This document shows positions 29,037-46,734 of a stretch of 64,000 nt of DNA, piece by piece. Origin of the DNA: a virus; IMG/VR virus record IMGVR_UViG_3300022752_000022, positions 64,001-128,000 of that record; one strand, given 5' to 3'. Each line of letters opens with the position of its first letter. Position 1 is the first letter of the stretch. A program made the translations under genes and the position numbers. Below the pieces are notes generated by a model. It ran no database searches. It was not told the origin of the DNA and saw only the letters and a list, made by a program, of their open reading frames with translations.

Positions 29037-29600
29037 ATGCCAGCGACATGGCTTATTAGCGATACACATTTCGGGCATGACAAAACCTGTACTGTGTTCA
29101 AAAGAGACGATGGTTACCCTCTTAGGCCCTTTAAAGATGCCGAAGAGATGGACGAGGAAATGATTAAGCGTTGGAACGAACGTGTTGATAAGAATGACAA
29201 AGTATATCACTTGGGAGACGTAGTCATTGCTCGTAAAAGTCTTGCTACTCTTAGTAGACTTAACGGAGACAAAGTTCTTATTAAAGGTAACCATGATATC
29301 TTTAAACTTCATGATTACACCGTACACTTTAGAGATATCAGAGGTTATCATGTGATGTCTGGTCTTATTCTTAGTCACGTTCCAGTACATGCTGATTCCA
29401 TCGAAAGATTTGGGTGCAATGTTCATGGACATCTTCACCATAGAAGAGTGATGAAAGATAATAAGATTGATCCGAGATACTTTAATGTGAGTGTAGAGTG
29501 TATCGACTTTGCTCCTATTCTTCTTGAAGATCTGAAGAAAAGAATTATGGAGCAGGGTGGGGGTGTCGAGATGAAAAAGTCTCGACACGAAGTAGATTAG
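29037..29600 (+). CDS. Calcineurin-like metallophosphoesterase
   Basis: SDTHFGH, HLGDV, KGNHD, SHVP, NVHGHLH. Confidence 0.88.
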   Translation: MPATWLISDTHFGHDKTCTVFKRDDGYPLRPFKDAEEMDEEMIKRWNERVDKNDKVYHLGDVVIARKSLATLSRLNGDKVLIKGNHDIFKLHDYTVHFRDIRGYHVMSGLILSHVPVHADSIERFGCNVHGHLHHRRVMKDNKIDPRYFNVSVECIDFAPILLEDLKKRIMEQGGGVEMKKSRHEVD

Positions 29601-29675
29601 CTGATGTAGATCAGTGGTAGATCGCTTTCTTGGTAAGAAAGAAGTCATGAGTTCGATTCTGTCAAGAGGTTACCA
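29600..29675 (+). pseudogene. Chimeric pseudo-tRNA-Thr(GGT)
   Basis: D arm and CTTTC-TTGGTAA-GAAAG anticodon arm are intact, but acceptor (GCTGATG vs AGAGGTT) and T stem do not pair. Confidence 0.65.
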
Positions 29676-29688
29676 AAAAGGAGTTTGT

Positions 29689-30225
29689 ATGAGACTTACT
29701 GATTTAATTAAAATATATGATAATGTTTTGAGTAAAGACTCTTGCAATAATATCATTGGGGAGTTTGAAGCAAGAAAAGAATTGGTAGATCATCATCATA
29801 ATGATGTTTACAAATTTGATCAATTAAACTTAAATCAGACTGATCTAAAACCTTTAGCGACAATTTTCATAAGGCAAATTATTCCGCTCATTAAATATTA
29901 TTCAGCGGAATTCAATGTTGATCGATTCATTAAAATGAATGCTTTTGAAGATGTTAGAATTAAAAAATACTTGAAGAATTCTGACTATCAATTTAAAACA
30001 CATATCGATAGTGCCGATAAAGAGTCTGCGGTACGATATTTGGTTTTCATTTTGTATTTGAATGATAACAACGGCAACACATTTTTTCCAACACTTGATT
30101 ACTCATGTAGACCAAAACAAGGAAGCATGATTTTGTTTCCACCTTTTTGGATGTATCCACATTCTGGTGTGATACCTACAGATAATGATAAGTATATTAT
30201 GATGAGCGCATTACATCATACATAA
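29689..30225 (+). CDS. 2OG-Fe(II) oxygenase (prolyl-hydroxylase-like)
   Basis: HID, LYLND, FPPFWMYPHSG, KYI; AAGGAG RBS before ATG 29689. Confidence 0.85.
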   Translation: MRLTDLIKIYDNVLSKDSCNNIIGEFEARKELVDHHHNDVYKFDQLNLNQTDLKPLATIFIRQIIPLIKYYSAEFNVDRFIKMNAFEDVRIKKYLKNSDYQFKTHIDSADKESAVRYLVFILYLNDNNGNTFFPTLDYSCRPKQGSMILFPPFWMYPHSGVIPTDNDKYIMMSALHHT

Positions 30226-33991: not shown

Positions 33992-34031
33992 CTGTCATCA
34001 AATCTTCATGAAAATTTAATGCAAATGTAAT
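33992..34031 (+). promoter_or_regulatory. Putative Pho box (PhoB site), four 11-nt-spaced half-sites
   Basis: CTGTCAT-caaa-TCTTCAT-gaaa-ATTTAAT-gcaa-ATGTAAT versus consensus CTGTCAT-N4-CTGT(C/A)A(C/T). Confidence 0.7.
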
Positions 34032-34055
34032 CAGTTTTATATCATTTTTATGTTA

Positions 34056-34092
34056 AATACATACGAGAGTATAGGGAACTCTCGTATGTATT
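34056..34092. repeat. Perfect 15-bp inverted repeat in the operon leader
   Basis: AATACATACGAGAGT-ATAGGGA-ACTCTCGTATGTATT. Confidence 0.85.
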
Positions 34093-34113
34093 AATCTTTT
34101 TAAGGGGAATGGT

Positions 34114-34359
34114 ATGAAACTAGAGATGCGTGTATGGGATATGGATGTTCGTTTAGAGCTAGAAGATGATGACACTGAAGATCAACTTTCAGTTTTGACA
34201 ACAGTTAGAGACCTTTTGGATATGTTGAGTCGGTTTGAAAAAGTAAATGTTAGCATCACACAAATTGAAGATGCTGATGAAGAAGTTGCAGAAGAAGACG
34301 AAGAAGAAAATCACACTGAAGTTGTACAAGATCATGCAGAGGAAAATCAAGTAATCTGA
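34114..34359 (+). CDS. Small highly acidic protein
   Basis: AAGGGG RBS; D/E-rich; first gene after the Pho box. Confidence 0.6.
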   Translation: MKLEMRVWDMDVRLELEDDDTEDQLSVLTTVRDLLDMLSRFEKVNVSITQIEDADEEVAEEDEEENHTEVVQDHAEENQVI

Positions 34360-34366
34360 TGAGAAA

Positions 34367-35140
34367 ATGGATTACCGTACCATCTTTATATCGGATGTAC
34401 ATTTAGGTAGTAAGGGTTGTAAAGCAGAAATATTAAGTAATTTTCTTAAAAACAGCAATGCACATAAATTATATCTTATAGGCGATATAGTAGACGGTTG
34501 GAAAATTCAGCAAAATAAGTGGGCTTGGAGACAAGCCCACTCCAACGTAGTGAGAAGAATTCTAGGTTACGCCAAACGTGGCACTGAAGTTGTTTACATA
34601 GCAGGGAATCATGATGAGTTTTTAAGACCAATGATACCTTACGGTTTAACCTTCGGTCGCATCCAAGTAGCAAATCAATGTACGCATGTAGGACTAGATG
34701 GCAAAAAATATCTAGTGATACATGGCGATCTTTTTGACGGTATCACTAGATTAGCACCGTGGATTAGTTTTCTCGGTGATAAATCTTATGACATGCTCAT
34801 TTCAATCAATACTAAATTTAACTGGTGGAGGCACAAACTTGGATTCGGGTATTGGAGTTTATCTAAGTATCTTAAACACAGAGTCAAGCGGGCTATTGAT
34901 TTTATGTTTCAGTTTGAGCGTAATCTTGCTGACTATTGTAGTAAGCGTGGTTTTGACGGAGTTATTTGTGGACACATCCACAAAGCAGAAATCAAAACAA
35001 TAAATGGCGTCATCTACATGAACGACGGTGATTGGGTTGAATCGTGTTCAGCATTAGTTGAGCATTTAGATGGCCGTTGGGAAATTGTGTATTGGGACAA
35101 GAGTGAAGACGATGTGGATTCTGTTTCTGATAGTCGTTAA
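34367..35140 (+). CDS. PlcP/LpxH-family metallophosphoesterase (phospholipase C-like)
   Basis: ISDVHLGS, GDIVDGW, AGNHDEF, HGDLFD, CGHIH, YMNDGDWVESCSALVE. Confidence 0.82.
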   Translation: MDYRTIFISDVHLGSKGCKAEILSNFLKNSNAHKLYLIGDIVDGWKIQQNKWAWRQAHSNVVRRILGYAKRGTEVVYIAGNHDEFLRPMIPYGLTFGRIQVANQCTHVGLDGKKYLVIHGDLFDGITRLAPWISFLGDKSYDMLISINTKFNWWRHKLGFGYWSLSKYLKHRVKRAIDFMFQFERNLADYCSKRGFDGVICGHIHKAEIKTINGVIYMNDGDWVESCSALVEHLDGRWEIVYWDKSEDDVDSVSDSR

Positions 35141-35315
35141 CATATACGATCCATCGGATGTGCCGGGCCGTATACAATTACAATTCAAAGATCAAGCTAG
35201 CTGTGAACTAGCGTTACAAAACACAAACTATTGGGTAAAATTCCCGTGGTTCAAAGTGGAGGGGAAGTGTGAAAAAAATACTGATCATAACAGACAATTT
35301 ACCAGACCAAATTAA
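35112..35315 (+). CDS. Small protein with hydrophobic N-terminus
   Basis: MWILFLIVV start; Cys pair; lies between the plcP-like and GT4 genes. Confidence 0.5.
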   Translation: MWILFLIVVNIYDPSDVPGRIQLQFKDQASCELALQNTNYWVKFPWFKVEGKCEKNTDHNRQFTRPN

Positions 35316-36270
35316 CGGTGTTGTTACCACATACAAAAATATTGAGGCGTGTGCGGTTCGTGATGATTATAACTTTGTTTACATTACTCCCGATGAGTTC
35401 CGCCACTTTGATTGCCCTGTATACAACGAAGTCAAGATTGCCTATCCAAGGAATATGGGCGAGAAGATTGCGGAGATACGTCCGGATCATATCCATATCG
35501 CCACAGAGGGTCCTGTTGGTTTGTGGGCTAGAGCATATCTTACAAAACATCATTATCGTTACAATACTGCTTATCATACTAAATTTCCTGAAGGGCTCAA
35601 AACTCTGGTTGGACTTCCTGAGTCTATTACCTGGCGTTACATAAAGTGGTTTCATAAACATACAGGCAAAGTGCTGACAACAACGGAATCAATGAAAGAA
35701 CAATTGAAAGCTAAAGGTTTAGTTGCTGACATTGTGCCGTGGACTAGAGGAGTTGATCGGACCATTTTTCATCCAGAGCATAGAACAAAAACAAACGGGC
35801 AACCAACTTTGCTTTGTGTGAGCCGAGTCAGTAAAGAAAAGAACCTGGAAGATTTTTGTAGTCTAGACTATTTTGGTGCAAAGAAAATTATGGTCGGTGA
35901 TGGTCCATATCGTGAAGAATTGGAAGAAAAGTATCCTGATGTGGAATTTGTCGGCTTCAAAACCGGTGTAGAATTAGCAACATATTTCGCAAATGCAGAT
36001 GTGTTCGTATTTCCTTCAAGATGGGAAACATTCGGCATTGTTATGATTGAAGCAATTGCATGTGGAACTCCTGTTGCAGCATATCCTTGCCAGGGCCCAG
36101 AGGATATCATTGAAAACGGTAAGACTGGCTACCTTAGAGAAAATCTTAAACAAGCAATTACCGAATGCCTGGTCATGGACCGAAACGTAGTCCATCAGCA
36201 TAGTCTGAAGTGGTCATGGGAAGAAGCGTGGGAAATCTTCCGGAACAATCTAGTTCCTCTCAAAAACTGA
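35269..36270 (+). CDS. GT4 glycosyltransferase (Agt-like diacylglycerol glycosyltransferase)
   Basis: ITD..P.QINGVV.T, HIATEGPVG, TAYHTKFPE, W.RGVD, RVSKEKN, FPSRWETFG.V.IEA.ACGTPVAAYP. Confidence 0.82.
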   Translation: MKKILIITDNLPDQINGVVTTYKNIEACAVRDDYNFVYITPDEFRHFDCPVYNEVKIAYPRNMGEKIAEIRPDHIHIATEGPVGLWARAYLTKHHYRYNTAYHTKFPEGLKTLVGLPESITWRYIKWFHKHTGKVLTTTESMKEQLKAKGLVADIVPWTRGVDRTIFHPEHRTKTNGQPTLLCVSRVSKEKNLEDFCSLDYFGAKKIMVGDGPYREELEEKYPDVEFVGFKTGVELATYFANADVFVFPSRWETFGIVMIEAIACGTPVAAYPCQGPEDIIENGKTGYLRENLKQAITECLVMDRNVVHQHSLKWSWEEAWEIFRNNLVPLKN

Positions 36271-36272
36271 TT

Positions 36273-36321
36273 TGTTGTTTTCATACAACACAGTTGACAA
36301 TTATCAGGACCAGCGTATAAT
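36273..36321 (+). promoter_or_regulatory. Early promoter with box
   Basis: TGTTGTTTTCATACAACA-cag-TTGACA-16 nt-TATAAT. Confidence 0.85.
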
Positions 36322-36887: not shown

Positions 36888-36926
36888 ATACAACGGGGTT
36901 GACACCAATCCCGTTTAGTGTATAAT
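36878..36926 (+). promoter_or_regulatory. Early promoter with box
   Basis: TGTTGCGTAAATACAACG-ggg-TTGACA-16 nt-TATAAT. Confidence 0.85.
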
Positions 36927-37133: not shown

Positions 37134-37172
37134 TTACAACAGGGTTGACAAATGGCCAAGGCCTGCTACAAT
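37124..37172 (+). promoter_or_regulatory. Early promoter with box
   Basis: TGTTGTTTAATTACAACA-ggg-TTGACA-16 nt-TACAAT (TGn extended -10). Confidence 0.85.
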
Positions 37173-45493: not shown

Positions 45494-45730
45494 ATGAGTG
45501 ATACGGCGTTTGGTATACGATTAGAAATTCTCAAAATGGCAAAAGATATAGTTGATCATGACTATTTTACAATGAGAGATTTTGAACAACAAATTTGGAA
45601 TACTAAAGCAGATGATGCTAGAGCAAAAGGCAAAGAAATACCACCATTTACTTTTACACCATATCCATCTGTTGATACTATCATAGCAAAAGCAAAAGAA
45701 CTTAATCGTTTTATTAGTGAAAGACAGTGA
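45494..45730 (+). CDS. Small conserved protein
   Basis: [10 protein letters not shown]...P.YP....II.KA..L..F; AAGGAG RBS. Confidence 0.65.
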
Positions 45731-46734
45731 ATTTGATGAAAGCATTTATTACTGGTATCACGGGGCAAGATGGCTCTTACTTAGCGGAACTTCTTTTGTC
45801 TAAAGGTTACGATGTGCATGGGCTTGTTAGACGCACTAGTACATATAATCTTCAAAACATTGAACATATTAAATCACAATTAAATCTTCATTACGGAGAT
45901 TTATCAGACGCATCAAATGTACACAATATCATTATGGACATTAAACCAAATGAAGTGTATAATCTCGGTGCACAATCACATGTTTCGGTTAGTTTTAAAT
46001 CACCTGCATATACTGCTGACGCAAATGGTGTTGGTGTTCTTCATATGCTTGAAGCTGTTAGAAAACTATCTGAACATCAAATCTGCAAATTCTATCAAGC
46101 ATCAACAAGTGAACTCTTTGGCAAAGTTCAACAAGTTCCACAAACAGAAAGCACACCGTTTTATCCACGAAGCCCTTATGCTGTAGCGAAACTATACGGC
46201 TACTGGATCACAGTCAACTATCGTGAAAGTTATAATTTATTTGCTTGTAACGGTATTCTATTCAATCACGAAAGTCCACGAAGAGGTGTAGATTTTGTTA
46301 CGAGAAAAATCACACATGGTTTAGTGAGAGCAATTCGTGGTGAAGGCCCAGTTCAATTAGGCAATCTAGATGCGAGACGAGATTGGGGCCATGCAAAAGA
46401 TTTTGTAAAAGCAATGTGGCTTATGCTTCAACAAACAAGAGCGGATGATTATGTGATTGCAACCGGTGTTCAACAAAGTGTCCGTGATTTCTGTGAAGTT
46501 GCCGCTAAGATTTTAGGAAAAGAAATTATTTGGACTGGCGTTGGATCATCCGAAAAAGGCATAGATAGATTAACTGGCAATGTTCTTATTGAAGTATCAG
46601 AAAAATTCTATAGACCAGCTGAAGTGAATACTTTATTAGGCAATTCAATGAAAGCAAGATCAGTTTTACAATGGAAACCTGAATATACATTTTATGATTT
46701 AGTGAAAGAAATGGTCATGGAGGACATGAAATGA
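45727..46734 (+). CDS. gmd: GDP-mannose 4,6-dehydratase
   Basis: [51 protein letters not shown]. Confidence 0.95.

Follow-up and report, generated by a model that had tools for sequence, protein, structure and literature searches.

Lipid renovation by the metallophosphoesterase PlcP and the glycosyltransferase family 4 (GT4) enzyme Agt is a bacterial system, described for the PA3219-PA3218 pair of Pseudomonas aeruginosa (PMC8528852) and for plcP and agt/GTcp of the SAR11 bacterium HTCC7211 (PMC4796936, PMC8231724), with further PlcPs known from Sinorhizobium meliloti and Phaeobacter MED193. PA3219 shares 46-47% identity with the PlcPs of Phaeobacter and Sinorhizobium, and in both P. putida (BIRD-1) and P. 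aeruginosa PlcP depends on PhoBR. On the phage side, pstS, phoA and g247 of cyanophage P-SSM2 are reportedly controlled by PhoB, as Zeng and Chisholm are said to have found in 2012. Here we describe a four-gene unit behind a Pho-box-like array in the IMG/VR virus record IMGVR_UViG_3300022752_000022, a 149,598-bp genome with direct terminal repeats that is rated complete; the window analysed comprises bases 64001-128000 of this record (64,000 nucleotides, nt), and all coordinates below are window positions. The unit is probably a phage operon, switched by PhoB, that would turn phospholipid into glycolipid and pass the phosphorus on to phage DNA: because enzymes for a lipid swap lie behind a phosphate-starvation control site, the virus probably draws the phosphorus for its DNA from the host membrane.

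The first-pass annotation of the window had pointed to four PhoB-like half-sites followed by genes for a small acidic protein, a phosphoesterase, a second small protein and a GT4, and all of these elements are present, within the following open reading frames (ORFs) and sites:

33992..34031, + strand: Pho-box-like array of four half-sites with an 11-nt period (CTGTCAT at 33992-33998, TCTTCAT at 34003-34009, ATTTAAT at 34014-34020 and ATGTAAT at 34025-34031)
34054..34059, + strand: TAAATA element, 22 nt after the last half-site, from sequence reading, its role putative
34056..34092, + strand: 15-bp stem-loop in the leader, followed by AATCTTTTT, from folding energy
34114..34359, + strand: acidic, Asp/Glu-rich ORF of 81 amino acids (aa), first gene of the unit, from ORF reading
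34367..35140, + strand: PlcP-like metallophosphoesterase of 257 aa (Pfam Metallophos, E 2.9e-14)
35112..35315, + strand: small phage-only ORF of 67 aa (56-67 aa in relatives), with a conserved start at 35112
35269..36270, + strand: Agt/GTcp-like GT4 of 333 aa, with a GTG start behind GGAGGGG (Pfam Glycos_transf_1, E 6e-24)
36294..36321, + strand: perfect sigma-70-type promoter TTGACA-16-TATAAT, start of the next unit and 3' boundary of the module, from sequence reading

The array begins two bases past the stop codon of the upstream gene, and a ribosome-binding site follows the stem-loop. The four + strand ORFs are tightly packed or overlapping: the phosphoesterase starts 8 nt after the acidic ORF stops, the GT4 starts 128 nt past the phosphoesterase stop, and the small ORF overlaps both the end of the former gene and the beginning of the latter. 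More than 600 viral contigs in IMG/VR encode the phosphoesterase at ~70-80% identity, and the best 80 of them were used for comparison; these related contigs, which derive from metagenome samples, are taken to be mostly freshwater. The GT4 occupies the same locus in 40 of the 80. Relative to the related contigs, the ratio of non-synonymous to synonymous divergence (dN/dS) is 0.06-0.15 for both enzymes, and the corresponding polymorphism ratio (pN/pS) lies at 0.22-0.47 in the acidic ORF and, outside the overlaps, at 0.12-0.28 in the small ORF; all four genes are under purifying selection.

The AlphaFold2 model of the phosphoesterase (predicted local distance difference test score, pLDDT, 88.9) consists of a calcineurin-like core with an inserted LpxH-type helical lid (helices at 125-193), and the metal-binding residues D10, H12, D40, N81, H82, H119, H203 and H205 are invariant in an alignment of 52 diverse homologues. 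This fold, lid and set of metal-binding motifs are shared with LpxH, which also provides the top NCBIfam and structural matches and the name found in databases; viral gene surveys list "lpxH" under lipopolysaccharide (LPS) biosynthesis, a pelagimyophage study takes phage glycosyltransferases as O-chain modifiers, and a GDP-mannose dehydratase gene lies 9 kb downstream of the module. Such features would fit an LpxH-type lipid A enzyme that works with an LPS glycosyltransferase to modify LPS, an explanation that we regard as very improbable in view of several lines of evidence. The LpxH structures that best match the model are 19-20% identical to the phage protein, the sequence match to solved LpxH chains reaches only E 7e-4, and scores stay far under the LpxH equivalog cut-offs (NF003743, 47.2 versus 134; TIGR01854, 40.2, or 38.8 in another run, versus 190.35). 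In a maximum-likelihood tree, four true LpxH proteins lie beyond a branch of length 5 (100% support), and the 40 phage copies from related IMG/VR contigs make up a single clade with 99% support, next to bacterial paralogues. Moreover, bacteria that carry a homologue keep a separate LpxH, the partner GT4 belongs to the diacylglycerol-glycosylating clade, and the module stands in a Pho-regulon context.

The bacterial homologues just mentioned were found by a genome scan at 48-57% identity in Alpha-, Beta- and Gammaproteobacteria, for example in Pseudomonas, Burkholderia, Paraburkholderia, Cupriavidus, Chromobacterium, Limnohabitans, Azospirillum and Caulobacterales. In the homologue-bearing genomes of Pseudomonas, Burkholderia, Limnohabitans and Chromobacterium, a true LpxH, with 40-48% identity to that of E. 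coli, is encoded separately at another locus; no separate true LpxH was found in the Azospirillum genome with a homologue. Exactly one homologue, with 51-59% identity, occurs in 52 of 121 genomes sampled from the family of that Pseudomonas genome; characterised PlcPs, by comparison, share 46-47% with each other. Taken together, these data support the phosphoesterase as PlcP-like, and not LpxH.

Of 80 bacterial loci, 57 encode a full-length GT4 homologue immediately after the phosphoesterase, an order that matches the one published for plcP and agt, and the phage GT4 is 36-44% identical over ~330 aa to these operon-linked proteins. The Agt/GTcp clade has been delimited by identity above ~35% to its members and below 25% to other GT4s, together with membership in the tree (PMC8231724), and the phage GT4 falls within it by both identity and tree. 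Phage copies are monophyletic (99% support) and have the bacterial Agt-like clade as their closest neighbours, with E. coli WaaG and WaaB far off on branches of ~4.8. The bacterial partners bear GRVAxEKN and FPSxTDTFG, the signature motifs of HTCC7211 GTcp, Agrobacterium Agt and their relatives (PMC8231724). These motifs, with the catalytic Asp256, are absent from the GT4 of the window, which has SRVSKEKN and FPSRWETFG instead, and phage proteins generally carry (S/G)R(V/I)SKEKN and FPSxWETFG: among the 36 phage sequences that the GT4 tree includes, thirty have Trp-Glu and six keep the Asp (two each with Thr-Asp, Ala-Asp and Trp-Asp), against Thr-Asp in all but two of the ~55 bacterial partners aligned. 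Judged from alignment and tree, Trp-Glu arose within the phage clade, and it restores the general EX7E pattern of GT4 enzymes.

The putative acceptor site is better preserved. His104, Thr162, Arg163 and Trp320 of GTcp are crucial for activity and have been placed in a modelled diacylglycerol pocket (PMC8231724); the corresponding residues are kept in the phage GT4, where AYHTKF (His103), WTRGVD (Thr159-Arg160) and WSW (Trp317) align with the bacterial clade. The proposal that the first-pass annotation had made for the two enzymes, namely a plcP/agt-like pair, is thus borne out as far as sequence comparison can tell: the phosphoesterase stands apart from LpxH and groups with bacterial paralogues that lie in operons with Agt-type GT4s and behind Pho boxes, and the GT4 belongs to the same clade as the partners in these operons, which carry the GTcp/Agt motifs, and keeps the residues of the diacylglycerol pocket.

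The two remaining genes set the phage module apart from its bacterial counterparts. An alignment of the small ORF from over 40 related contigs shows M1, W2, D16, P18, G19, C31, F47 and C53 to be invariant; the resulting pattern is a Met-Trp start, a hydrophobic stretch, D-x-P-G-R and two invariant cysteines. It was not found in 80 bacterial loci, where the two enzyme genes lie only 20-150 nt apart, and it has no Pfam, PHROG or PADLOC family. AlphaFold2 models it as a beta-beta-alpha-beta fold (pLDDT 78) in which the hydrophobic N-terminus is a strand and not a membrane helix; structure searches gave no Foldseek match at E 0.001 or better, and the best VIA hit, with Z 5.5, led to generic ferredoxin-like folds and is uninformative. 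Homologues of the acidic ORF (43-76% identity) occur in 11 of the 80 related contigs; this ORF has no Pfam, PHROG or PADLOC match and is absent from the bacterial operons in the 80 loci.

The array was scored against a degenerate half-site, with a maximum of 28 for four sites. Its score of 25 is the highest of any four-site array on both strands of the whole 149,598-bp genome, in which only three arrays, this one included, reach 23, and scores of at least 25 arise in ~1% of 200 simulated first-order Markov genomes. In the 80 related contigs (1.2 Mb counting both strands), a strict pattern, [ACT]TGT[AC]A[TC]-N4-[ACT]TGT[AC]A[TC], occurs 38 times, every time on the gene strand. In about half of the cases the repeat stands 42-140 nt ahead of the phosphoesterase gene or, as in the window, just before the acidic ORF; the other repeats precede genes for PhoX-like (~737 aa, with a twin-arginine signal) or PstS-like (~335 aa) proteins and, in three contigs, a 215-aa ORF without assigned function. 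Among the bacterial homologues, a GC-richer box of the CTGTCA(C/T) type is present no more than 250 nt upstream in 20 of the 80 loci; of 33 hits in the 869 kb scanned, 22 come from these boxes. Occurrence before plcP, pstS and phoX alike is to be expected of a Pho box, and the repeat is most likely a PhoB site, albeit a candidate one. The earlier claim of PhoB-like half-sites in front of the module gains much strength from these relatives, in which the same repeat appears before phage pstS and phoX genes.

Individual relatives illustrate this arrangement. A PhoX-like gene lies 3.3-3.9 kb upstream of the module in the close relatives L006 (L006:100-2400), L009 (L009:272-2570), L011, L013, L014, L016, L019 and L024, with a near-perfect TTGTAAT-N4-CTGTAAT box in front, and pstS stands behind a box of the TTGTAAT-N4-CTGTAAT type in L036, L040, L074 and L076. 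In Pelagibacter phage Mosig, the nearest isolate for the phosphoesterase gene, the PlcP-like gene is divergent from pstS, and the 150-nt spacer between them (L001:4842-4991) holds TTAACA repeats, including TTTAACA-AAAA-CTTAACA with an 11-nt period; these may be a SAR11-type Pho box.

Downstream of the box, TAAATA (rarely TAAGTA or TAACTA) follows at a distance of 11 or 21-22 nt upstream of plcP, pstS and phoX in the related contigs, the gap being 11 nt in pstS-type promoters and 21-22 nt in the window and its subgroup. This hexamer would be the -10 element or the start region of a Pho-type promoter. In E. coli, Pho promoters have ~10 nt between box and -10. The longer gap in the subgroup of the window is unlike this spacing, and the nearly invariant TAAATA at a fixed distance, often with a hairpin, makes for a more stereotyped layout than host Pho promoters typically have; the phased repeats might on this account be an operator or promoter element that belongs to a phage regulator or promoter class and acts independently of host phosphate status. 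We think this improbable, as the strict repeat stands almost exclusively before members of the classic Pho regulon in the 80 contigs (plcP, pstS and phoX, the exception being the 215-aa ORF in three of them), its half-site (C/T)TGT(A/C)A(T/C), repeated every 11 nt, amounts to an AT-rich form of CTGTCAT-N4-CTGTCAT, and the GC-richer version precedes the bacterial homologues.

TAAATA was also considered as a T4 late promoter and set aside: the module has GTTAAATA, and the late promoters of this genome use the canonical T4 word TATAAATA. That word is strongly biased in strand and position; the whole genome has 18 copies on the + strand versus 3 on the - strand, and 14 of the + strand copies stand no more than 80 nt before an ORF. 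The stem-loop, which begins at or inside TAAATA, has a folding energy of -21.2 kcal/mol (z = -6.2). Equally strong stems of unrelated sequence are found at the same place in the relatives L009, L012 and L019, where there is no U run; a plain intrinsic terminator was rejected as a general explanation, given that relatives keep the stem without the U run. More speculatively, if TAAATA served as the -10, Pho-driven transcripts would start inside the 5' arm of the hairpin, which might then block read-through from upstream early genes and spare the Pho-driven transcripts; alternatively, the hairpin could act as a 5' stabiliser.

Gene content, family placement, homology to the bacterial operon and the phased repeat with its pstS/phoX association in relatives are observed directly; from them and from the bacterial pathway we infer PhoB binding, the enzyme activities, the sugar donor, the timing and the benefit to the phage as follows. 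During phosphate starvation, PhoB of the host would activate the promoter. The PlcP-type phosphoesterase, probably Mn-dependent, would take the phospho-head group off host phosphatidylethanolamine, phosphatidylglycerol or phosphatidylcholine to leave diacylglycerol, onto which the Agt/GTcp-type GT4 would move a sugar from a uridine diphosphate (UDP)-sugar, so that the bilayer would be rebuilt from phosphorus-free glycolipid. Host phosphatases would free phosphate from the released phosphoesters for nucleotide synthesis and phage DNA, and the acidic and beta-beta-alpha-beta proteins would be phage-specific accessories.

Several points weigh against this scheme. As a single box of two half-sites, the array is not above chance (9 genome sites at 13/14 versus ~12 expected), and half-sites 2 and 3 of the window are degenerate; what makes it significant is thus the phasing of four sites, together with its conservation in relatives. 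The -10 assignment is ambiguous, with a TATAAT-like hexamer 13 nt after the box in some members of the subgroup, where the window has only TTTTTA, and a strong hairpin with a U run, like a terminator, stands between the Pho site and the first gene of the window. No pstS, phoX or phoH was found in this genome (Pfam served for the phoH and PstS-type families, and comparison with the related-phage copies for pstS and phoX), so there is no in-genome site for comparison and the module is the sole phosphate-related item among the genes searched for. As for the enzymes, the link to the characterised PlcP and Agt proteins (S. meliloti SMc00171, Phaeobacter MED193_17359, HTCC7211 and PA3219/PA3218) runs through published identities, motifs and operon context and not through a shared tree. 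Finally, the phage change from Thr-Asp to Trp-Glu may mean that donor, acceptor or rate differ, because the D256E substitution alone cost GTcp more than 90% of its activity (PMC8231724).

The lack of the searched phosphate genes (phoH, PstS-type, pstS and phoX) in this genome would also suit true PlcP and Agt homologues whose benefit to the phage is a changed envelope, be it through a block to superinfection, tuning of lysis or upkeep of the membrane once host phospholipid synthesis stops. Published host lipid remodelling does alter membrane proteins and phage receptors, and the phage-specific small protein and altered GT4 motif suggest a pathway function beyond that of the host version. We nevertheless consider such a benefit in place of phosphorus supply unlikely: the control site is common to pstS and phoX in the relatives, which ties the module to the phosphorus economy rather than to envelope defence, and the two purposes are in any case compatible.

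With phosphorus supply as the preferred purpose, the module appears to be a phage-borne variant of the known bacterial PlcP-Agt system, distinguished by its own GT4 motif and small protein. It shares with the bacterial operon the order of metallophosphoesterase and GT4 behind a Pho box, the metal-site and diacylglycerol-pocket residues and an EX7E-type donor site, and its products are 50-59% (phosphoesterase) and 36-44% (GT4) identical to the bacterial members. It differs in its carrier, a lytic T4-like phage, in the two added phage-only small genes, as well as in FPSxWETFG for FPSxTDTFG and SRVSKEKN for GRVAxEKN in the GT4 and in half-sites that, unlike those of bacterial Pho boxes, are AT-rich and of the TGTAAT type. 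The resemblance to LpxH ends at fold, lid and metal-binding motifs, with low identity, scores under the cut-offs, a separate clade and bacterial relatives encoded alongside true LpxH on the other side. As in cyanophage P-SSM2, phage genes lie behind a host-type Pho box, which would let them answer to phosphate stress of the host, and relatives of the present phage have pstS and phoX behind the same repeat. Full-text literature searches returned no description of a PlcP module in a virus, and the papers retrieved deal only with lipid remodelling by hosts; viruses are absent from the founding PlcP survey, as is this gene from the papers on pelagimyophages and on Mosig.

Among the genes of the phage are those for a major capsid protein of the T4 gp23 type (E 2e-147) and for a ribonucleotide reductase, besides a tRNA cluster. 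Together with the T4 late-promoter word, these features identify the source as a T4-like myophage; it is taken to be a freshwater phage. A blastn search of the region against 50,697 phage records gave no match. A permuted two-piece transfer-messenger RNA (tmRNA) at 45069-45471 matches the betaproteobacterial family RF01850 with 132 bits and has a tag ending in ANDERFALAA, which hints at a betaproteobacterial host or donor.

Other features of the window lie on either side of the module. A weak second metallophosphoesterase-like ORF (Metallophos_2, E 6e-4, below the cut-off) and then a 2-oxoglutarate (2OG)-Fe(II) oxygenase are encoded in 29037-30225, directly after the tRNA cluster; 2OG oxygenase genes of Mosig likewise lie beside its PlcP-like gene. 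A stand-alone 107-aa ORF at 32162-32485 matches Pfam Nlig-Ia (E 1e-30), the NAD+-binding Ia domain found at the N-terminus of DNA ligase, and lacks the ligase body. Within 900 nt downstream of the module, three perfect or near-perfect sigma-70 promoters (TTGACA-16-TATAAT, at 36294-36321, 36899-36926 and 37145-37172) each precede a small ORF and look like T4-type early promoters. Further downstream, the gene for GDP-mannose 4,6-dehydratase (45727-46734, E 7e-139) is the first in a + strand ORF run to ~53.4 kb that may be a sugar-nucleotide or surface-polysaccharide cluster.

In lakes and oceans, the synthesis of phage DNA is often limited by phosphorus. The solutions known from phages, pstS and phoA, act on external phosphate, which the P-SSM2 genes import or release, whereas the PlcP-Agt module would open an internal store, the host membrane, and leave the bilayer intact. 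A 150-kb genome contains ~3x10^5 P atoms and a bacterial cell has roughly 10^6-10^7 phospholipid molecules, so that, as a rough estimate, membrane phosphorus would pay for anything from a few genome copies to some tens of them. More tentatively, and with slightly less than even confidence, we propose that the "lpxH" of viral surveys is PlcP, and that hundreds of large aquatic phages carry a self-contained, PhoB-gated device that spends host membrane phospholipid on phage DNA, with glycolipid made in its place, and that has a retuned GT4 site and a dedicated small partner; these two novelties may change the sugar donor or couple the enzymes, and so give a lipid profile beyond the host's own.

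In summary, reading these genes as a PlcP-Agt module would correct a widespread "lpxH" annotation, and the phage-specific active-site change and small partner protein offer concrete handles for enzymology. If the reading is true, infection would change the lipid composition of phosphorus-starved bacterioplankton, a change that would be relevant to lipid-based markers of phosphorus stress.

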